Below, piece after piece: positions 19,169 to 60,018 of a stretch of DNA of 64,000 nt; position 1 is the stretch's first letter, and the number at the start of each line of letters is the position of its first letter. The stretch comes from Oscillospiraceae bacterium (GTDB lineage Bacteria > Bacillota > Clostridia > Oscillospirales > CAG-272), in assembly GCA_015063305.1 (NCBI GenBank), contig SVUJ01000005.1:34484-98483 (forward strand), given 5' to 3'. Under the pieces are notes generated by a model that was given only the letters and a program-made list of their open reading frames with translations, was not told the DNA's origin and searched no databases. The position numbers and the translations under genes are program-made.

Positions 19169-19419
19169 TAAACCTCCAATAGGTATACTTATAAATTTCT
19201 CTAAATAATTTTATCATAATTATATTATATATACAACAACACATTGTTAAAAAATAATGAACAAACTATTAACTGCAACTATATATTGTGTCGGACAAGC
19301 ATATATAATGCCGTATTTTGAATTTTTTGCGAAAAAGATTGTTAAAATTATGAATACAGTCATAAGGCGGAATGGGGCTAAATATAATTTTACAGAAAGG
19401 AAGCCCAGGAGGACGGAAG

Positions 19420-50719: not shown

Positions 50720-53221
50720 CTAATTTTCCTCTCGTCTTTTCAACCAGTTGTGATAATTGAAATCGGCTCGGCAGTATCTGTTATATTGCTGAGCTTTTCT
50801 GCTTATGCCGCTGTATTCGTTCTCGCCCAAAAGATTTGCGAAAAAGGGAAGCTCGGGCGAGGTGGCGGGGAGTACGTCGCTCCCGATATCCCGCCACACG
50901 TACTCGGCGTCGGTGACGTATATCTGCATAGGGAATACGCGGATAACCTTGATAAGACCGACGTAGGTGATGTTTTCTGAGGGACAGTCGGCACTTGCCA
51001 CCCCGCCGCCCGCGGCGTCGTAAGCCACCGATACGTGTGTGGTGCACAGAGCACTCGGCTCTGTACCCTTAACGAAATATCCCTTTTCGGCTCGGCTGCC
51101 GCGGGGGTCTTTTCTGCACGCCTCGCTCATAAGCATTCCCGAGTCGGCGCAGTATTCGGCTTCAACTATATTCGCACTTGTTTTAAATTCCTTCAGCTTT
51201 TCCTCTCCGAGCCTGTCTGCCTCAATATAGTCGGAGTGAAGCTCGGTCATCACCTCGTCCCATATTTTAAGACAGGTGTTTGAGGGGATATCACTCAGCG
51301 GCTTCGGGTACTCATAGCCGTACCAGATGCCGCAGATATAATAGGGAGTGTAACCTACAAACCATCTGTCCTCGTTGTTTTGTGTAGTACCCGTTTTTCC
51401 CGCGCAATCTACAAGCTCGTCAAGCTTTATCGTTGTGGCAGTACCTTTCTTTATGACGTTTTCGAGCATCATAGTCATAATAGAGGCATTCTCCTCGGAT
51501 AAAACTATCTCGCCCTTGTAATCCTTGTTCAGTATCTCGTTGCCGAGAGCATCTACCACAGACAGATAAGACCTCGGTTCATTGTAAACTCCGTTGTTTG
51601 CGAATATCGAGTATGCCGCCGTTATCTCCCTCACACTCACGCCGTAGTTGAACTGTCCGAGCGCGAGAGCCGCGTAATCCACGTCAGTTATGATGCTTCC
51701 GTCACTCAGCTGTTCTCGCTCTATAAGAGAGCTTATGTGCAGCTTTTGGGTAAGAAAATCGAAGGAGTTTTGCCGTCCAAGATCCTCCAAAACCTTTACC
51801 ACAACGGTGTTTACGGAATGCTCTATGGCATAGTTGATGTTTGTAAGTCCTCTGTATTCTCCCGTCGAGTTTCTGGGCCAGGCGGAGGGCTCTACTATTT
51901 GTCCCGCGTTCGGGTCAAGATTGTATTTTCCGAAGTTCACGGGGACGTCGTCATATACGCTTGACCAGTTTATAAGCCCCGCTTCAAGCGCGGGAGCATA
52001 TACCGAAAGAGGCTTTATTACCGACCCTGCGGGACGCACGGTCTGTGTGGCGAAATTTTGAAGACGGTTGCTTTTTTTCTCTCCTATAGCACCCGCCACT
52101 CCGAGAATATCGCCCGTGGCGCTGTCAATTATTATCATCGAGGATTGGGGACGCTCTCCCTCTTTTTTTGAGTAAAAGTGTGAAGAGTTAGCATAATATT
52201 CCTCAAGTGTGGTCTGCACCTCGGGGTCCATTGCGGTGTATATCTTAAGACCGCCCGTGTATATCGTCAGGTTAGCCATCTGACGGCTGTATCCCTTTTG
52301 CTCCATAAGGTCGCTTATAACGTCCTCTATTACCATATCAACGTACCACGAGTTTACCTTTGCCGAGCTGTTTTGGGAGTTTACATTGAGTGTTATCGGC
52401 TTATCATAATATTCGTTCAGGCTTTCCTCGGATATATAGCCTTGCTCGTACATCTGCTTGAGGATTATATTTCGTCTGTAGGTGTTGTTGTCTGGGTTTT
52501 TGATGGGGTCGTAGTAAGAGGGGCTGTTGGTTATAGCGGCAATACAGGCACACTCGCCAAGGGTAAGCTCACTTACGTCCTTCGAGAAATAATAATTTGC
52601 CGCCGCCCCCACCCCGTAACAGCCCTGGGAAAGATTTATTATATTGAGATACATAGAAAGTATCTCGTCCTTTCCCATCTTGGTTTCAAGGTCGAGCGCC
52701 CAAAGTATCTCCTGTATCTTTCGCTGGAAGGAATAATCGTCCTTCTGTGTCACGTTTTTTATAAGCTGTTGGGTTATCGTAGAGCCGCCGTAGCTGTCGC
52801 TGAATTTGAGGAAATAATTTGCGCCCGCCGATATACTTCTCAGCCAATCCACCCCCGAATGCTTGTAAAATCGCTTGTCCTCAATGCTTATAAAGGCGTT
52901 TATAAGGTCTTTGGGGATCTTTTCAAATTCCACGTATTCGCACCTATAACCGCCGTATATCTCGGTGGATAGCTCAACAGGCTCGCCAATTCTGTTTTCT
53001 CTGTCGCTGAAATCGTAGTAATATAGCTTGGTCGCGCTCTCAGCGCCCACTGTGGTGAAGAGAGTTTCGTCTATACTTTTCTCAATATTACGTTCAATAT
53101 ATATGGCGAAAACAAGCCCCGTCACGGTGGCGGTGAGAGTTAATATCAAGGCGGTGACGCTAAGTATCTTTAATATTTTCAAAAATATCCTTTTAGCACT
53201 TCTTCTTTTTTCTTTTTTCAT
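50720..53221 (-). CDS. Class A (bifunctional glycosyltransferase/transpeptidase) penicillin-binding protein
   Basis: N-terminal TM helix. GT51 motifs SIEDKRFYKHSGVD and GGSTITQQL. Transpeptidase motifs SVIKP (SxxK) and KTGTT. Long C-terminal extension. Confidence 0.9.
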   Translation of the reverse strand: MKKEKRRSAKRIFLKILKILSVTALILTLTATVTGLVFAIYIERNIEKSIDETLFTTVGAESATKLYYYDFSDRENRIGEPVELSTEIYGGYRCEYVEFEKIPKDLINAFISIEDKRFYKHSGVDWLRSISAGANYFLKFSDSYGGSTITQQLIKNVTQKDDYSFQRKIQEILWALDLETKMGKDEILSMYLNIINLSQGCYGVGAAANYYFSKDVSELTLGECACIAAITNSPSYYDPIKNPDNNTYRRNIILKQMYEQGYISEESLNEYYDKPITLNVNSQNSSAKVNSWYVDMVIEDVISDLMEQKGYSRQMANLTIYTGGLKIYTAMDPEVQTTLEEYYANSSHFYSKKEGERPQSSMIIIDSATGDILGVAGAIGEKKSNRLQNFATQTVRPAGSVIKPLSVYAPALEAGLINWSSVYDDVPVNFGKYNLDPNAGQIVEPSAWPRNSTGEYRGLTNINYAIEHSVNTVVVKVLEDLGRQNSFDFLTQKLHISSLIEREQLSDGSIITDVDYAALALGQFNYGVSVREITAAYSIFANNGVYNEPRSYLSVVDALGNEILNKDYKGEIVLSEENASIMTMMLENVIKKGTATTIKLDELVDCAGKTGTTQNNEDRWFVGYTPYYICGIWYGYEYPKPLSDIPSNTCLKIWDEVMTELHSDYIEADRLGEEKLKEFKTSANIVEAEYCADSGMLMSEACRKDPRGSRAEKGYFVKGTEPSALCTTHVSVAYDAAGGGVASADCPSENITYVGLIKVIRVFPMQIYVTDAEYVWRDIGSDVLPATSPELPFFANLLGENEYSGISRKAQQYNRYCRADFNYHNWLKRREEN

Positions 53222-53325
53222 AGCCTTTGCAAGTACCTATCAATTTATTTTACTATATTATTGCACCTCGGGCGAATATCTAAACACCCGCGGGGGATAA
53301 TATTTACAGTTGTTAGTTCGGAGGT

Positions 53326-53724
53326 GTGGCTATGAAAAGGTCAAGATTGCCTGTTATATTGGGAACTTATTCTGTAATTCTTCTTGCTTGTACGATGATT
53401 GCTATAGCGGCGGTCGTTTGGAGGACAGCGCCGAGCGCGAAGCAGACAGTAATAGAAACCGTGATAGAAACAGAACATATATACGTATTTTTAGGCCCTG
53501 AGGCAACAGATGAGGCACAGACAACGAGCGAGGCGGACACGGTATGGATAATTCGCGAGTACGGAGAAAGGATAGGTATATTCAACGAGTCCGATGAGCT
53601 CATAGATATAATCGACGTATACACGAAAACTCTCCCCGAGGCGGACAGGCTTTTGCTTAAGGAGGGAATAGTGGTAAGCTCAGAAAAGCAATTAAATTCA
53701 TTAATAGAGGACTATTCAAGTTAA
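53326..53724 (+). CDS. Small membrane-anchored protein; its C-terminal part resembles the BofC C-terminal domain (tentative)
   Basis: GGAGG RBS and an N-terminal TM helix. The pattern YGERIGIF...LPEADRLLLKEGIVV...LIEDYSS resembles the BofC C-terminus as I remember it. Confidence 0.4.
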   Translation: MAMKRSRLPVILGTYSVILLACTMIAIAAVVWRTAPSAKQTVIETVIETEHIYVFLGPEATDEAQTTSEADTVWIIREYGERIGIFNESDELIDIIDVYTKTLPEADRLLLKEGIVVSSEKQLNSLIEDYSS

Positions 53725-53727
53725 AAT

Positions 53728-53955
53728 GGGCTACTTCATTCAGCGCAGAACAAAAACACACTAAAAAAGACATAAAAAGAACCGCCTTTACTACCTTAGT
53801 TGATAGTAAGAGCGGTTTTTAATGTAGAAATTCTTACGAATTTCAATTTTATTTTATGTGTGTTTTTTAGCCGCGTTTTGGCTCTCTGGCGTACCCTCGT
53901 ACGCCGACGAGAACCAAATCACGACTTCTGCATCTTAATGAAGCTGCCCCTTTTT
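53728..53955. other. ~225-nt highly structured intergenic element whose ends base-pair (candidate ncRNA or MITE-like insertion); it contains an internal terminator-like hairpin
   Basis: gggctacttcattcagcgcagaa (53728-) is an imperfect complement of ttctgcatcttaatgaagctgcccc (-53950), which is followed by ttttt. Nested pairs: aaaaacacac/gtgtgtttttt, ttggctctc/gagaaccaa and ggcgtac/gtacgcc. The internal hairpin aaccgcctttacta/tagtaagagcggttttt lies at 53779-53820. Confidence 0.55.
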
Positions 53956-54029
53956 GGTATAAAATATATTGACTTTTCGTATAACTTATATGAAGATTTG
54001 TGTAAGGTGGAGAATTGAGAAAAACCATA

Positions 54030-54058
54030 TTGACAAGAAGTCACAGAGGGATTATTAT
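54030..54058 (+). promoter_or_regulatory. Sigma-A promoter for the rubredoxin gene
   Basis: TTGACA, 17 nt, TATTAT. Confidence 0.6.
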
Positions 54059-54089
54059 ATTATTAGCAATTTAATCATCAGGAGGCATT

Positions 54090-54278
54090 ATGAAACACGT
54101 TTGTGCTCTTTGTGGGTACGTATACAAGTCCGAAGCAGGCGACCCCGAAAACGGAGTAGCTAAAGGAACCGATTTTGAAGATATCAGCGCAGATTGGGTC
54201 TGTCCCCTCTGCGGAGCGTCCAAGGAAGATTTTGATCTTGTTGAGGACGGCGATGTAAATGAGAACGACGAATTTTAA
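54090..54278 (+). CDS. rd: Rubredoxin with a short acidic C-terminal tail
   Basis: AGGAGG RBS. CALCGY ... [13 protein letters not shown] is the classic CxxCG...CPxCG pattern. Confidence 0.9.
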
Positions 54279-54302
54279 ATTCTTTCAAATAAGGTATAAC
54301 CT

Positions 54303-54335
54303 AAAAACGCTTACGTAATTTACGTAAGCGTTTTT
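54303..54335. terminator. Bidirectional terminator between the rubredoxin and trxB-like genes
   Basis: Stem aaaaacgcttacgta / tacgtaagcgttttt. Confidence 0.8.
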
Positions 54336-54343
54336 GTTTTATC

Positions 54344-55252
54344 TTATAAGCTGTCTATGTATCTGCAAGCGGCAAGTGCGGCAACAGCGCCGTCGGCGCT
54401 TGCTGTGGTCACCTGACGGATAGCCTTTGTTCTACAGTCCCCCGCAACGAAGATACCAGGGGTGCGAGTGAGGCAATCCTCGCCTGCGGCTATGTAGCCG
54501 TAATCGTTGAGGTCAGCTACGTTTTCAAATCCGCGGTTCTCGGGAACTTGTCCAATAGCAACGAATATACCGTCAAGCTCGATATCGCTTTCAGTGCCGT
54601 CAACGGTGTTCTTTATCCTGATTCCGCTGAGCTTGTCCTCGCCCTTCAGCTCGGTGACTACCGAGTTGAATATAAAGGTGACGTTGTCGCGGGTCTGGAG
54701 CTTTGCAACAAGTCTGCCCTCACCTGTCATCATAGCAAGATTCTGTATAACGTAGACCTTTGTGCAGTATTCACTGAGCATCACAGCTTCCTGAAGAGCG
54801 GTGTTTCCGCCGCCGATAACGGCAACGTCGCGTCCGTTATAGAACGCTCCGTCACAAACGGCACAGTAGGAAACGCCCTCGCCTGTAAGCTCTTCCTCGC
54901 GCTCTATACCGAGGTGGCGGTGCTTCGAGCCTGCCGCGATTATAACGGTCTTCCCCTCAAAATTGCCCTGGTCTGTGATAACGGTGAATTTGTCGTCTGT
55001 CTTTTCTATTTTCTCAGCAGTTGCAAGTTCAATATCAGCTCCGTGAGCGATCACCTGATCAAGCAGCTTCTCAGCAAGCTCGTTTCCGCTTATCTGCATT
55101 ATAGAGGGATAGTTCTCGACCTTCGGGGAGAAGGTTATCTGTCCGCCAAATGTCTCCTTTTCAAGAACGAGCACCTTTTTGTCGGCTCTGAGCGCGTAAA
55201 GCGCGGCAGTAAGTCCCGCAGGACCTGCGCCAATGATTATAATATCGTGCAT
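54344..55252 (-). CDS. Low-molecular-weight thioredoxin-reductase homologue lacking the NADPH-binding HRRxxxR motif (FFTR-like candidate)
   Basis: FAD motif GAGPAGLTAA, redox CAVC, second Rossmann motif GGGNTALQEA, and GDC at the C-terminus. Where E. coli TrxR has HLIHRRDGFRA, this protein reads YVIQNLAMMTG. Confidence 0.8.
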   Translation of the reverse strand: MHDIIIIGAGPAGLTAALYALRADKKVLVLEKETFGGQITFSPKVENYPSIMQISGNELAEKLLDQVIAHGADIELATAEKIEKTDDKFTVITDQGNFEGKTVIIAAGSKHRHLGIEREEELTGEGVSYCAVCDGAFYNGRDVAVIGGGNTALQEAVMLSEYCTKVYVIQNLAMMTGEGRLVAKLQTRDNVTFIFNSVVTELKGEDKLSGIRIKNTVDGTESDIELDGIFVAIGQVPENRGFENVADLNDYGYIAAGEDCLTRTPGIFVAGDCRTKAIRQVTTASADGAVAALAACRYIDSL

Positions 55253-55297
55253 ATTAAAATTCCTTCTTGTTATTGATTTTTCGATAAAACGGGGGAG

Positions 55298-55337
55298 CGG
55301 GGAAGGATAAAGGCGTTTGCGCCTTTTTCCTTCCCCG
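55298..55337 (-). terminator. Strong hairpin between nrdD and the trxB-like gene (terminator or attenuator)
   Basis: Stem cggggaaggataaaggcg / cgcctttttccttccccg with a 4-nt loop. Only a short T tract follows on the minus strand. Confidence 0.5.
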
Positions 55338-55348
55338 TATCTTTATGA

Positions 55349-57736
55349 TTATGCCTCTTCGGCAAACTTGCGGATGTTGGAAACGTTAACTATCTTTTCA
55401 ACGTTCTCTCCGTCAACGATAACGAGTGTGGGAGCCTGCTTGATACCGTAAGCATTAGCGAGATCGGGAGCTTCCTCAGCGATGATCTTGTCGTAAACGA
55501 TACCTGCATCGTCAAGGAACTTAGCCGCCATCTTACAGTTGGGGCAGGTCTTGGTAGCGAAAAGCATAAGCTTTCCGTTTGATGCCTTAGCTTCGCTCTT
55601 TTCCTCAGCCTTTACCGAAGGAGCGCAGGGGTCTGCATTCATATTGTATCCGTGCTTGTTCATAGAAGCGCTGATATCATAGAGCTTACGCGACTTGTAC
55701 TCCTGAGACTTACCGTCGTTCCAGTTCTGAACGGGTCTGTAGTATCCTGTGATACGGCTGTATACCTCGGTCTTCTCGCCGCAGTGAGGACAAGCGAACG
55801 CCTCGCCTACGATATAGCCGTGAGTCTTACAAACCGAATATGTGGGAGAAAGAGTATAATAGGGAAGCTTGTAGTTTTCAGCGATCTTGCGAACGAGGTT
55901 AGCCGCAGCCTGCCATGTGGGAAGCTTCTCGCCGAGAAAGGCGTGGAATACTGTTCCCGATGTGTAGAGGGTCTGGAGCTCGTCCTGAATGTCAAGCGCC
56001 TCAAATATATCCGAGGTGTAGCCAACGGGGAGGTGAGAGGAGTTGGTGTAGTAGGGAACGCTGTTGTCCTCGCAAGCGGTAACGATGTCGGGGAATCTCT
56101 TAAGGTCGTGCTTAGCAAGACGGTAAGAGGTAGACTCTGCGGGAGTAGCCTCGAGGTTGTAGAGGTCTCCGTACTTTTCCTGATAGTCGGAGAGACGGTT
56201 TCTCATGAAGTTAAGAACGTCCTTGGTGAACTCCTGAGTTTCCTTATGTGTAAGGTCAGCCTTGAGCCACTTAGCGTTAAGACCAACCTCATTCATACCA
56301 ACAAGACCGATGGTAGAGAAGTGGTTCTCGAATGTTCCGAGGTAACGCTTGGTGTAGGGGTAAAGACCCTCTTCAAGAAGCTTTGTTATAACAGTTCTCT
56401 TTACCTTGAGCGAACGAGCCGCAACGTCCATGATGTGACCCAAGCGCTTGTAGAAGTCAGCCTCATTTTCAGCGAGATATGCGATTCTGGGCATATTGAC
56501 TGTAACAACACCGATAGAACCTGTGCTCTCACCGCTTCCGAAGAATCCGCCCGACTTCTTGCGAAGCTCACGGAGGTCAAGGCGCAGACGGCAGCACATA
56601 CTTCTTACGTCACTGGGCTCCATATCGCTATTGATGTAGTTAGAGAAGTAGGGAGTACCGTACTTGGAGGTCATCTCGAAGAGAAGACGGTTGTTTTCGG
56701 TATCCGACCAATCGAAGTTAGATGTGATGGAGTAGGTGGGGATAGGATACTGGAAGCCTCTGCCGTTGGCATCGCCCTCGATCATTATCTCGATAAACGC
56801 CTTGTTTATCATATCCATCTCAGCCTGACAATCCTTGTACTTGAAGTCCATCTCCTTGCCGCCAACGATAGCATTCATCTCAGCGAGGTCAGCGGGGACC
56901 TTCCAGTCGAGAGTGATGTTGGAGAAGGGAGCCTGAGTACCCCAACGGGAGGGTGTGTTTACACCGAATATGAAGGACTCGATGCACTTCTTTACCTGAG
57001 AGTAGGTAAGATTGTCAACCTTAACGAAGGGAGCGAGGTAGGTGTCGAAGGACGAGAATGCCTGAGCGCCTGCCCACTCGTTCTGCATGATACCGAGGAA
57101 GTTTACCATCTGGTTACAGAGGGTAGCGAGGTGGCTTGCGGGAGCGGAAGTGATCTTTCCAACAACTCCGCCAAGACCTTCCTGAATGAGCTGCTTGAGC
57201 GACCAACCTGCGCAGTAGCCTGTGAGCATCGAGAGGTCGTGGAGGTGGATATCCGCGTTTCTGTGCGCGTTTGCGATCTCCTCGTCATAAACCTCAGAGA
57301 GCCAGTAGTTAGCGGTGATAGCGCCCGAGTTGCTGAGTATAAGACCGCCTACCGAGTAGGTAACGGTGGAGTTTTCCTTAACACGCCAGTCTATGCTCTT
57401 TACGTAGCTGTCCACGAGCTCCTTGTAGTCAAGGATAGTAGACTTCATATTACGGAGCTTTTCTCTCTGCTTACGGTAAAGGATGTAAGCCTTTGCAACG
57501 TCAGCGTATCCAGCCTGAACGAGAACTGCCTCAACGCTATCCTGAATATCCTCGACAGCGATAAGACCTTCCTTTATTTTTGATTCGAAATCAGCCGTGA
57601 CCTTAAGTCCGAGCAGATCTATAACATCGGGGTGATAATTTTTTTCCTGTGCTTCAAAAGCGAGCTTGATGGCTTCGTTGATCTTATCTATCTTAAAGTC
57701 AACTACTTTTCCATCTCTTTTAAGTACCTGATACAT
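55349..57736 (-). CDS. nrdD: Anaerobic ribonucleoside-triphosphate reductase NrdD (class III) with an N-terminal ATP-cone and a fused C-terminal thioredoxin/glutaredoxin-fold domain
   Basis: ATP-cone at the N-terminus (VLKRDGKVVDF...ILYRKQREKLR). C-terminal Zn site CPHCG followed by the glycyl-radical motif SRITGYYRP. A further ~109-aa extension contains LFATKTCPNCKMAAKFL. Confidence 0.9.
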   Translation of the reverse strand: MYQVLKRDGKVVDFKIDKINEAIKLAFEAQEKNYHPDVIDLLGLKVTADFESKIKEGLIAVEDIQDSVEAVLVQAGYADVAKAYILYRKQREKLRNMKSTILDYKELVDSYVKSIDWRVKENSTVTYSVGGLILSNSGAITANYWLSEVYDEEIANAHRNADIHLHDLSMLTGYCAGWSLKQLIQEGLGGVVGKITSAPASHLATLCNQMVNFLGIMQNEWAGAQAFSSFDTYLAPFVKVDNLTYSQVKKCIESFIFGVNTPSRWGTQAPFSNITLDWKVPADLAEMNAIVGGKEMDFKYKDCQAEMDMINKAFIEIMIEGDANGRGFQYPIPTYSITSNFDWSDTENNRLLFEMTSKYGTPYFSNYINSDMEPSDVRSMCCRLRLDLRELRKKSGGFFGSGESTGSIGVVTVNMPRIAYLAENEADFYKRLGHIMDVAARSLKVKRTVITKLLEEGLYPYTKRYLGTFENHFSTIGLVGMNEVGLNAKWLKADLTHKETQEFTKDVLNFMRNRLSDYQEKYGDLYNLEATPAESTSYRLAKHDLKRFPDIVTACEDNSVPYYTNSSHLPVGYTSDIFEALDIQDELQTLYTSGTVFHAFLGEKLPTWQAAANLVRKIAENYKLPYYTLSPTYSVCKTHGYIVGEAFACPHCGEKTEVYSRITGYYRPVQNWNDGKSQEYKSRKLYDISASMNKHGYNMNADPCAPSVKAEEKSEAKASNGKLMLFATKTCPNCKMAAKFLDDAGIVYDKIIAEEAPDLANAYGIKQAPTLVIVDGENVEKIVNVSNIRKFAEEA

Positions 57737-57784
57737 TTTATTCTCCTTTTCTTTTAAAATTTATTACACTATGTGACGTATATA

Positions 57785-57813
57785 AGTATAAAGCAAAAAA
57801 GGAGAAAAGTCAA
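57785..57813 (-). promoter_or_regulatory. Sigma-A promoter for nrdD
   Basis: On the minus strand: TTGACT (57813..57808), 17 nt, TATACT (57790..57785). Confidence 0.55.
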
Positions 57814-57822
57814 TTGTGAGTT

Positions 57823-57872
57823 ATCACAATATATTGGTGTTTTGCTTGTACAAAATCACAATATATTGTATA
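57823..57872. promoter_or_regulatory. Two tandem NrdR-box-like palindromes
   Basis: atCACAATATATTGGTGt (57823-57840) and atCACAATATATTGTAta (57855-57872) have equivalent positions 32 bp apart. They lie immediately upstream of the nrdD -35 box. Confidence 0.7.
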
Positions 57873-57898
57873 AATTGAGATTTTTGAAAATTTAAGGG

Positions 57899-58588
57899 TT
57901 ATATACCGCGAAGCTCTGTTGAGGGTATGTTTTTACGCGCAATATCAAGCAAAGAGCGCATTTCTTCTGGGGTGTAGGCGGATAATCCGTCGGATATTAT
58001 ATCCCCCGAGTCCTTAAATGACTGAAGAAAATAGCGCCCAGCGCCTACTATCCAGCGGGACATATCCTCTATATCTTGTGGTGTGTGAAATTCTTTAACC
58101 ACAGTCGTTCTGAATTCGTAGGGGATATTTCCGTTTATCAGCAAAGATATGCTTTCGGATATCTTTGCGGTATCCACGTCAGTACCGCAGATGAGGGAAT
58201 ATTTTTCTTTTGAGTTTTTTATGTCCATAGCTACATAATCAACAAGACCGCGGGCGAGAATAGAATTGAGCCTTTCGGGGAAGGAGCCGTTTGTGTCCAG
58301 CTTAACGGCAAGACCGATATCCTTGATCTTTTGCAAAAAGTCTTCAATATCTTTTTGCAGGAGCGGCTCGCCGCCGCTTACACATACGCCGTCAAGTATC
58401 GAGCTTCTCTTTTTTAAGAATGAGAAGAAATCGTCCTCGGATATAATATCCGAAAAATCGGGGGATATCACCAAAGAGGCGTTGTGACAAAACGGACAGC
58501 GGAAGTTACAGCCGCCCGTAAATACCGTACACGCTACCTTGCCCGGAAAATCAAGCAGAGTGGTTTTTTGAAGACCTTTTATTATCAT
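57899..58588 (-). CDS. nrdG: Anaerobic ribonucleotide reductase activating protein (radical SAM) NrdG
   Basis: GGCNFRCPFCHN radical-SAM cluster motif, then VSGGEPLLQ. 229 aa. Adjacent to nrdD. Confidence 0.88.
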   Translation of the reverse strand: MIIKGLQKTTLLDFPGKVACTVFTGGCNFRCPFCHNASLVISPDFSDIISEDDFFSFLKKRSSILDGVCVSGGEPLLQKDIEDFLQKIKDIGLAVKLDTNGSFPERLNSILARGLVDYVAMDIKNSKEKYSLICGTDVDTAKISESISLLINGNIPYEFRTTVVKEFHTPQDIEDMSRWIVGAGRYFLQSFKDSGDIISDGLSAYTPEEMRSLLDIARKNIPSTELRGI

Positions 58589-58688
58589 AGCAGCACAAAC
58601 CTTTCATTCTTATTACATATAAGACAAGTATATCACAAAACTGTCCGAAAAGCAATCGGCAAGAAAAAAGTTTTGTATCGGGGGAGAA

Positions 58689-59696
58689 ATGAGCATATTT
58701 GACGTTTTAGACCTTGTTTGCGGCTTGGCGCTATTTTTGTTTGGTATAAATTTTATGGGAGAAACACTCAAACGAAGCGCCGGAAACAGACTTAAAGTTT
58801 TTTTGGAAAATATCACAGCGTCACCTATAAAAGGTTTTTTCTTTGGCGTTGCGGTAACCGCGGCAATGCAGTCATCGAGCGCCACAACGGTTATGGTGGT
58901 AGGTTTTGTCAATTCGGGAGCTATGACACTCTCACAGGCGATAAGCGTTATAATGGGAGCGAACGTCGGCACTACCGTCACATCGTGGTTAACGGGACTT
59001 TCGGGGCTTGGCACGGTCGGCGAGGAAACGGTAAGCTTCTTGAGATGGCTCAAGCCATCTTCCTTCGTACCCATAGTGGCGCTTATTGGAATAATCTTAT
59101 ATATGTTTGGGAAGAGCTCGGCAAGAAAGAATATAGGTTCTATACTTCTTGGGTTTTCTATACTTATGGTAGGAATGGAGCTTATGTCGGCGGCGGTAAG
59201 TCCGCTTGCCGAGAGCGAAAGCTTCAAGGCGACCCTTTTGTGGTTTGAGGACCCAATACTCGGAGTTTTTGTTGGTGCGCTTATGACCGCAATACTTCAA
59301 AGCTCGTCAGCCGCCGTTGGTATCCTGCAATCGCTTACCGTCACGGGCGCGATAAATTTTGAAAACGCAATACCCATACTTCTGGGTCAGAATATAGGAA
59401 CTTGCATCACCACTATAATAGCATCTATAGGGGCGGGAAAAAACGCCAAAAGAGCGGCTTTCGTACATCTTTATTTTAATATAATAGGTGTGACCGTTTT
59501 TATGAGCTTATTCTACCTTATTAATAATATAGTGGGACTGCCCTTTGCGAGCGATAGTATAGACGTGTGGGGAATAGCAATAGTTCATACAGTATTCAAT
59601 ATTTTGTCGGTGCTCCTGATAGCGCCGTTTGCGCGACAGCTTGAAAAGCTTGTTTGTATAACTGTCAGGGATAACAAAAAAAGCGGTTCAATTTGA
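58689..59696 (+). CDS. Na/Pi cotransporter family protein (short form, no PhoU-like C-terminal domain)
   Basis: Duplicated motif QSSSATT...GANVGTT and QSSSAAV...GQNIGTC, characteristic of Na_Pi_cotrans repeats. Confidence 0.8.
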   Translation: MSIFDVLDLVCGLALFLFGINFMGETLKRSAGNRLKVFLENITASPIKGFFFGVAVTAAMQSSSATTVMVVGFVNSGAMTLSQAISVIMGANVGTTVTSWLTGLSGLGTVGEETVSFLRWLKPSSFVPIVALIGIILYMFGKSSARKNIGSILLGFSILMVGMELMSAAVSPLAESESFKATLLWFEDPILGVFVGALMTAILQSSSAAVGILQSLTVTGAINFENAIPILLGQNIGTCITTIIASIGAGKNAKRAAFVHLYFNIIGVTVFMSLFYLINNIVGLPFASDSIDVWGIAIVHTVFNILSVLLIAPFARQLEKLVCITVRDNKKSGSI

Positions 59697-59754
59697 TTTC
59701 TTCTCTTAAGAATAGGTTTTAGAGTTGAATATAATACGTTACCCACCGACAGAA

Positions 59755-59787
59755 AAGGGCGAAGAATTGTTAAAATTCTTCGCCCTT
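59755..59787. terminator. 14-bp hairpin (probable terminator; the A-run on the + side suggests it serves minus-strand transcripts)
   Basis: Stem aagggcgaagaatt / aattcttcgccctt with a 5-nt loop, preceded by agaaaa. Confidence 0.55.
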
Positions 59788-59813
59788 TACCTTGGCAAAT
59801 GTGATTTTGTTTG

Positions 59814-60018
59814 TCGATATGCCTCGCTCGGCTCAGCTCGATATATTTGCCTTGCGGCAAATTCGATATAACCTCCCTTGCGGTCGGTTTCGATATGATA
59901 TAAATCCCTCGTTTGCGAAGCAAACATATCGAGCGCAGCTATATCGAGTTGCGTCAGCAACATATCGAAAATCCCGCAAGGGATTTATATCGATGCTTTG
60001 CGCCCCCGGGCGCAAAGC
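59814..60018. repeat. Phased 7-mer / hairpin array C: four TCGATAT then four ATATCGA, separated by unique short hairpins
   Basis: TCGATAT at 59814, 59838, 59863 and 59890. ATATCGA at 59926, 59941, 59962 and 59987. Spacers fold as atttgcc-ttgc-ggcaaat, gtttgc-gaa-gcaaac, gttgc-gtca-gcaac, aaatccc-gcaa-gggattt and gctttgcgcc-cccg-ggcgcaaagc. Confidence 0.85.

Follow-up and report, generated by a model that had tools for sequence, protein, structure and literature searches.

How does a class III ribonucleotide reductase (RNR) get its active site re-reduced after each turnover when the enzyme carries a redoxin of its own? This question is raised by a locus in a 64,000-nucleotide stretch of DNA from a gut Clostridia bacterium of the Oscillospiraceae (contig SVUJ01000005.1, positions 34,484 to 98,483; the whole stretch is called the window below). 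The genes nrdG, nrdD and a trxB-like gene lie in that order, co-oriented, on the minus strand, and nrdD ends in a thioredoxin-fold domain (Table 1). The ORF coordinates and the account of NrdD in an earlier note on this DNA proved correct when ORFs and Pfam/NCBIfam domains were checked. From the sequence evidence given below we consider it fairly probable that this is an NrdR-regulated NrdD2 locus, in which TrxB reduces the tethered CPNC domain and that domain re-reduces the NrdD active-site disulfide. Electrons would pass from a donor, perhaps NADH, through the FAD of TrxB to its C130/C133 pair (CAVC). From there they would presumably move to C731/C734 (CPNC), held on a flexible linker after the glycyl-radical domain, and then to the disulfide that would form at each turnover between Cys175 and either Cys381 or Cys382, with Glu529 as the likely proton source.

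Extent of the fusion was surveyed among relatives. A scan that covered a single genome for each GTDB species gave a relative in at least 598 genomes; family counts refer to the 80 best of these, at 73–83% identity. Counts out of 81 refer to the alignment of NrdD orthologues, and counts out of 65 to the TrxBs syntenic with nrdD. A CPxC tail was present in 80/80 genomes, so the fusion is neither chance nor a frameshift artefact, and most of the 80 loci have nrdG upstream of nrdD. Carriers are found in Oscillospiraceae, Acutalibacteraceae, Christensenellaceae and Lachnospiraceae, and in several metagenome-assembled genomes (MAGs) of Lentisphaeria/Victivallaceae; cultured carriers include Roseburia lenta, Pseudoflavonifractor phocaeensis and Ruminococcus turbiniformis. 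The Lentisphaeria/Victivallaceae MAGs with nrdG and a fused nrdD (L009, L013, L016, L018, L021, L025, L045 and L047) have the genes on contigs of up to 254 kb. Their fused NrdD shares ∼79–80% amino-acid identity with the Clostridia version, and trxB follows in 4/8. This suggests that the module moved horizontally between gut phyla; mis-binning is less likely because several independent MAGs are involved.

The body of NrdD is that of a class III enzyme. Pfam places an ATP-cone (PF03477) at residues 3–92 and the NRDD domain (PF13597, E 1e-186) at residues 121–686; the scores lie well over the cutoffs for NF006126 (1129 bits, cutoff 548) and TIGR02487 (507 bits, cutoff 326). The NF006126 match ends at residue 688. 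What follows had been described, from the letters alone, as a low-complexity linker and a redoxin-fold CPNC domain, and Pfam, an AlphaFold model and Foldseek all bear this out. In the whole protein the Glutaredoxin/Thioredoxin match spans residues 719–786. The tail taken by itself scores 28.8 bits with PF00462 (E 1.4e-6; gathering score, GA, 22.9) and 25.2 bits with PF00085 (GA 23.5). Its AlphaFold model, built with 65 homologous tails, has a pLDDT of 88.7 and shows a minimal thioredoxin fold of ∼75 aa, with the topology beta-alpha-beta-alpha-beta-beta-alpha (E13-19, H24-35, E41-44, H49-54, E62-67, E70-75, H77-86). The top Foldseek matches in the PDB are all thioredoxins, with probability 1.0. 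Among the 66 tails compared, TCPNC and QAPTL, the motif with the cis-Pro, vary hardly or not at all. Profile scores above gathering, topology, CPNC and cis-Pro thus place the tail among the thioredoxin-fold redoxins, and by this modelled fold it is a genuine redox-active domain in cis.

The tail fits none of the established redoxin families. It is not an NrdH-redoxin: its TIGR02194 score of 25 bits falls short of the cutoff of 85.75, it has CPNC rather than C-[VMI]-Q-C, and the context is class III. Nor is it a classical TrxA, with 25.5 bits for TIGR01068 against a cutoff of 96.8, TCPNC in place of WCGPC, and a minimal fold. Scores with the NrdH, TrxA, Grx3 and YruB models were all 18–26 bits, for cutoffs of 85–97, so the tail makes up a small subfamily of its own.

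An exhaustive search of 1.84 billion representatives gave 293 matches with E ≤1e-10, and the domain stood at the extreme C-terminus in nearly all of the 150 listed. We looked for a stand-alone ancestor in both word-indexed and exhaustive searches, and the short matches inspected were contig-end NrdD fragments or artefacts; one candidate, L082, has a run of N in its sequence. Given the C-terminal placement and these artefactual short matches, the domain appears to occur specifically as a tail of NrdD. The sole clearly non-NrdD context among the matches seen was P0302 (877 aa), where a domain 47% identical to the tail ends a TPR-TIR-RCC1-repeat protein; this could be a chimeric gene call. In one MAG (locus L081, 4700–5060) an in-frame TAA within the NrdD Zn-site (GEV*KCPHC) splits nrdD from the tail, and trxB then follows; the gene may be a pseudogene, or the stop may come from recoding or from an error in the sequence. 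Two fused NrdDs carry insertions with the Grx-like tail still terminal: P0315 (1314 aa) has an intein with an HNH/NUMOD3 homing endonuclease, and P0001 (950 aa) has another large insertion in the NRDD core.

Active-site correspondences were drawn by alignment to T. maritima NrdD (TmNrdD, PDB 4coi), and finger-loop motifs were read after PMC9669993 and, as far as it treats them, PMC4493059. NrdD2 enzymes, in the terms that PMC4493059 offers, have a third active-site Cys and an active-site Glu, and some members also have a Met. The double-Cys finger loop and Glu529 are present in 81/81 orthologues. The NrdD1 set, a single-Cys MxCR loop with neither third Cys nor Glu, does not apply, since the enzyme has both the CC pair and the Glu and shares the Met alone with that set. 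The NrdD3 set, a QCCR/A loop with neither Met nor Glu (PMC9669993), does not apply either to an enzyme with MCCR and Glu. By its active-site residues the window NrdD is a thiol-type NrdD2. The earlier idea of redoxin-served active-site thiols thus holds as regards the thiol-type set (βA Cys, CC loop, Glu529). A finer point that it had passed over is that the loop is MCCR, not SCCR, and keeps the Met of formate chemistry.

A trxB homologue lies immediately downstream of nrdD, on the same strand, in 65/80 genomes (81%). The gap between the two genes is at most 30 nt in 31 loci (down to an 8-nt overlap), 51–114 nt in 26 and 147–249 nt in six, with two outlying gaps of 466 and 1082 nt. With 31 of the 65 gaps at ≤30 nt, co-transcription of nrdD and trxB would be the rule in this family. 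The window spacer, of 96 nt as first noted, belongs to the longer class. It reads hairpin, GCUCCCCCG, UUUUAU, with the T-run 9 nt past the stem. In related loci with spacers of at least 50 nt a strong hairpin almost always comes right after the nrdD stop, often with a T-run next, and the trxB ribosome-binding site is within ∼15–40 nt of the hairpin. A promoter would not fit into that stretch, so trxB would have to be read through from nrdD; the window fits this promoterless pattern, as had been suspected from its lack of a promoter between hairpin and ribosome-binding site. Expression of trxB thus probably depends on transcription past a hairpin, which sets its level below that of nrdD. The comparative data suggest an operon-internal attenuator, a leaky terminator or a stabiliser, common in the family. 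A clean intrinsic terminator was considered and set aside: the terminator scan made no call, and the comparative data favour a leaky terminator or stabiliser.

Several observations weigh against the proposed relay. The hairpin with its nearby T-run could terminate much of the transcription from nrdD into trxB. In 15/80 genomes there is no adjacent trxB, and nothing consistent takes its place downstream. TrxB aligns to TIGR01292 over its full length at 328 bits, slightly below the cutoff of 343. The window linker has one Cys only, as opposed to the Cys-pair shuttle of class I/II RNRs. Met380 is kept in the finger loop of 81/81 orthologues, and formate use is compatible with the sequence. Finally, AlphaFold2, used to see if the tail docks on the active site, modelled full-length NrdD with low confidence (pLDDT 51.7, pTM 0.31, from a 59-sequence alignment at 83–95% identity).

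Which donor would feed TrxB? The protein carries C130-A-V-C133 (nt 54854–54865), GGGNTA (residues 147–152) and QNLAMMTGE (residues 170–178; nt 54719–54745), and more than 40 thioredoxin reductases (TrxRs) in the PDB match it at E <1e-40. It is not an ordinary NADPH-dependent TrxR (NTR), for GGGNTALQ is present and HRRxxxR is replaced by QNLAMMT. Such Q-type TrxBs (consensus QNLxxlTGE) make up 52/65 of the syntenic partners and group together as a single clade when a neighbour-joining tree is drawn; in this monophyletic group all three 2'-phosphate arginines have given way to QNLxxxTGE. Ferredoxin-dependent flavin TrxRs (FFTRs) are known in Clostridia (PMC10880999, PMC8154056), and clostridial and cyanobacterial FFTRs are likewise low-molecular-weight (low-Mr) TrxR homologues without HRRxxxR. 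A rubredoxin gene adjoins trxB in the window. It is possible, though doubtful, that the HRR-less TrxB is independent of pyridine nucleotides and takes its electrons from ferredoxin, rubredoxin or flavodoxin, so that dNTP synthesis would draw on reduced ferredoxin.

The pyrophosphate motif speaks against this. By published accounts neither of the NAD(P)H motifs, GxGxxA and HRRxxxR, is present in FFTRs (PMC10880999), and the pyrophosphate motif is kept in TrxRs that use NADPH or NADH and degenerate in the NAD(P)H-independent enzyme TRi (PMC5627308). Unlike in FFTRs, GGGxxA is found in all 65 syntenic TrxBs. The window TrxB is also much nearer to NTRs. Its best PDB match is the TrxR of Thermosipho africanus, 7jyp, also of the QNL type, at 240 bits, followed by ordinary Gram-positive NTRs at 223–230 bits; the Gloeobacter FFTR 5j60 gives 152 bits, the clostridial FFTRs 6gna, 6gnc and 6gnd give 115–131 (as against 225–240 for NTRs and 7jyp taken together), and D. 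vulgaris TRi 5nii gives 102. Loss of HRR alone, moreover, marks NADH-preferring TrxRs, those of T. maritima, DvTR3 and Cp34 (PMC5627308 and, as far as its account goes, PMC3720550), and a preference of the Thermotoga enzyme for NADH is reported (PMC5627308). The description of TrxB as FFTR-like can thus no longer be upheld, and the low-potential route from ferredoxin or rubredoxin that it had served is possible and no better supported than NADH. On these sequence comparisons NADH appears at least as likely a donor as ferredoxin; we lean slightly towards NADH, with reduced ferredoxin or flavodoxin as the alternative.

The other syntenic partners are of the ordinary NADPH type, a further point against a general dependence on ferredoxin. 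Canonical HRRDxFR was found in 13/65, mostly beside the NrdDs of Lachnospiraceae and Pseudoflavonifractor (L007, L014, L034, L037, L043, L054, L055, L056, L062, L067, L072, L075 and L076). With both types at this position, the conserved feature is "a TrxR", not one donor. The co-occurrence of the fusion with an HRR-less trxB, which the earlier note had put forward for survey, is therefore borne out in that trxB follows nrdD in 65/80 and is HRR-less in 52/65, and is broken by these 13. The Q-type and HRR-type TrxRs at the same locus offer a natural series for the study of donor switching in thioredoxin reductases.

The rubredoxin gene does not belong to the module. It lies on the opposite strand, convergent with trxB, and has a promoter-like site of its own, TTGACA-17-TATTAT at 54030–54058 (score 11/12). 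Among the 80 related loci a rubredoxin gene comes within 6 kb of the nrdD locus in one only. Rubredoxin had been given a place in the reductant chain; convergent, separately promoted and near the locus in 1/80, it was dropped from it, and the ferredoxin-type reading loses that support. In C. pasteurianum the cp34 and cp9 genes reportedly lie next to a rubredoxin gene; the likeness of the window to that cluster may be coincidental.

A variant of the relay combines such a TrxB with the linker. The active site of class I/II RNRs is closed to thioredoxin, and a C-terminal Cys-pair shuttle is needed (PMC4390871). The NrdD linker is unconserved and of highly variable length across the 81 orthologues. 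At least two linker Cys are present in 27/81, mostly as a CxC or CxxC pair (CVEC, CTC, CDC, CGC, CVC, CPC, CAEC etc.). Multi-Cys linkers include those of L001, L002, L003, L005, L017, L032, L046, L053, L055, L056, L058, L061, L065, L068 and L073. By analogy with the C-terminal tail of class I/II RNRs, such pairs could act as a swinging dithiol shuttle; alternatively, they could form a metal site. We hold only tentatively, and as somewhat unlikely, to an NADPH-independent relay with a QNL-type TrxB fed by ferredoxin, flavodoxin or NADH and a linker CxC/CxxC shuttle in about a third of the family. If this is true, class III would have arrived by convergence at the Cys-pair shuttle of class I/II.

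It is unlikely, in our judgment, that the redoxin stands outside turnover altogether. Formate would then be the turnover reductant by way of Met380 and Cys175 in the manner of E. coli NrdD, and the tethered thioredoxin and TrxR would serve maintenance or activation; the tail would keep the cysteines of the Zn-ribbon/glycyl domain or the active-site thiols reduced for NrdG, for example after transient O2 in the gut. The invariant Met of the MCCR loop, together with an effect of thioredoxin in E. coli given below, is what gives this main rival its force. In formate-type enzymes the finger-loop Met forms a thiosulfuranyl radical, and Burnim et al. consider MCCR enzymes able to use either reductant (PMC9669993). 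The tail is, besides, joined right after the Zn-site and glycyl-radical segment; thioredoxin is reported to activate the class III enzyme of E. coli (as cited in PMC4390871), and clostridial thioredoxin systems are generally linked to oxidative-stress repair (PMC10880999). However, a purely formate-driven enzyme does not need the invariant third Cys and Glu. In our alignment the loop of the characterised formate-type NrdD from P. copri reads MGCR, with a single Cys, and a 1:1 fusion exceeds the needs of occasional repair.

That trxB encodes the cell's general thioredoxin reductase, adjacent without dedicated meaning, with any thiol system reducing the fused domain, we regard as distinctly unlikely: the fusions without adjacent trxB, the spacer hairpin of the window, the NrdR-type control region that nrdD has to itself and the full-length, ordinary low-Mr look of TrxB would all fit, but adjacency in 81% of species, in several families and with an apparent transfer into another phylum, with about half of the gaps at ≤30 nt and no promoter room after the hairpin, is stronger than a chance neighbourhood.

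The favored relay, from TrxB through the tethered CPNC domain to the NrdD disulfide, has precedents in part. The NrdD2 enzymes of Neisseria bacilliformis and Thermotoga maritima (Wei et al. 2014, as represented in PMC4493059 and PMC9669993) share the class III core, βA Cys, double-Cys loop and Glu, and a thioredoxin-type protein reductant is expected for them as well; N. bacilliformis NrdD2 uses thioredoxin, according to a citation in PMC9669993. The window NrdD differs from these in its redoxin in cis, in the TrxR gene next to it and in having MCCR rather than SCCR, and its similarity to TmNrdD is limited (139 bits).

A redoxin fused to an RNR component as its own reductant is known from the Grx::ATP-cone::NrdB protein of Facklamia ignava, where the fused Grx domain is a functional reductant for the class I enzyme (PMC6187632). 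That fusion is N-terminal, on the radical-generating subunit, glutathione-dependent and with a Grx of the CPYC type (PMC6187632). By contrast, the window fusion is class III, C-terminal on the catalytic subunit, with a TrxR partner.

Small dedicated redoxins with their own reductase are also on record. Methanosarcina barkeri NrdD3 (Wei et al. 2015, as cited in PMC9176816) has a dedicated small redoxin and a reductase encoded nearby. As far as that citation describes it, it differs in its QCCR loop, in having no Glu, in a separate NrdH-like redoxin, and in a reductase that is by name a ferredoxin:disulfide reductase rather than a TrxR homologue. The M. barkeri ferredoxin:disulfide reductase is reportedly an Fe-S enzyme, not a flavoprotein. 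In C. pasteurianum, Cp34 and Cp9 (Reynolds 2002, as cited in PMC3720550) are again a clostridial low-Mr TrxR homologue and a minimal redoxin of ∼75 aa, and the NADH-dependent Cp34 works with the small Grx-like Cp9. In the terms of that citation Cp9 differs in that it stands as a protein by itself, has a CP[YW]C-type site and acts on a peroxiredoxin (PMC3720550).

No paper in the searchable literature was found to describe an NrdD with Trx fused to its C-terminus. The sole mention that came to light is one grx::nrdD in a supplementary table of a 2018 RefSeq survey, from Lachnospiraceae bacterium TWA4, subclass NrdDd, not studied there (PMC6187632). The first impression that the fused arrangement had not been characterised therefore seems right, and the Trx-NrdD fusion seems uncharacterised yet very widespread.

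The MCCR motif occurs in 83% of double-cysteine class III RNR sequences, and the physiological reductant of its carriers, whether formate, thioredoxin or both, is not readable from sequence (Burnim et al., PMC9669993). A large clade with thioredoxin fused to the enzyme and a TrxR gene 3' of it is the strongest genomic argument so far for the use of a protein dithiol by enzymes with MCCR plus Glu. NrdG, NrdD-Trx and TrxB together make a self-contained three-protein system in which the question of the reductant could be put in vitro. Members of the clade are common among the Oscillospiraceae, Acutalibacteraceae and Lachnospiraceae of human and animal guts, and the answer therefore bears on DNA precursor synthesis in a large part of the gut anaerobes.

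Table 1. Features of the nrdG-nrdD-trxB locus and its surroundings, in window coordinates.
Feature	Position	Strand	Basis
Rubredoxin gene, 62 aa	54090..54278	+	PF00301, E 3.7e-20
Palindromic terminator-like hairpin between trxB and rubredoxin gene	54302..54336		Perfect 16-bp stem, then T-run
trxB-like gene, low-Mr thioredoxin reductase, 302 aa	54344..55252	-	TIGR01292, 328 bits
Strong hairpin in nrdD-trxB spacer	55298..55337	-	-33.7 kcal/mol, z -5.7
nrdD, class III ribonucleoside-triphosphate reductase with C-terminal thioredoxin-fold domain, 795 aa	55349..57736	-	NF006126, 1129 bits, residues 1-688
Thioredoxin-fold domain, residues 720-795; active site C731-P-N-C734 at nt 55535-55546	55352..55579	-	PF00462, AlphaFold2, Foldseek
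Low-complexity linker, ∼33-35 aa, single Cys (DPCAP)	55580..55678	-	pLDDT <50
Gly664, in glycyl-radical motif SRITGYY (residues 660-666)	55745..55747	-	Sequence and orthologue alignment
Glu529 (YNLEATPAE), putative proton source of thiol-type NrdD	56150..56152	-	Aligns with TmNrdD E495; 81/81
Finger loop S379-M-C-C-R-L384, Met before double Cys	56585..56602	-	Aligns with TmNrdD SCCR; 81/81 invariant
Cys175 on strand βA (TGYCAGW), bottom-face active-site cysteine	57212..57214	-	Aligns with TmNrdD PYCFAY cysteine; 81/81 invariant
Promoter-like TTGACT-17-TATACT upstream of nrdD	57785..57813	-	10/12 consensus positions, consensus match only
Two NrdR-box-like palindromes, ACAATATATTGT and CCAATATATTGT, centres 32 bp apart	57825..57870		nrdG-nrdD spacer sequence
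nrdG, class III RNR activase, radical SAM, 229 aa	57899..58588	-	TIGR02495 (NrdG2), 221 bits against cutoff 131; PF04055 match

The spacer between nrdG and nrdD is 162 nt long and holds the nrdD promoter region together with the NrdR-box-like palindromes. We take ACAATATATTGT and CCAATATATTGT to be NrdR boxes by their likeness to the consensus, rather than by a curated model. A pattern search gave three such matches in the window where 0.17 were expected. In 10 related loci the sequences recur unchanged upstream of nrdD or nrdG, and the pair in L003 is also 32 bp apart. An Rfam scan of 53000–60000 gave sub-threshold chance matches only, with no riboswitch or known leader. A gene of the Na/Pi-cotransporter family (58689–59696, plus strand) is divergent from nrdG, and a homologue of it adjoins nrdG in L003 too.

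A spoIIIAA homologue (PF19568; 19372–20373) has the third NrdR-box-like match (19277–19290) ∼80 nt upstream; this match is probably a chance occurrence. The spoIIIAA homologue itself indicates that the organism is a spore-former.

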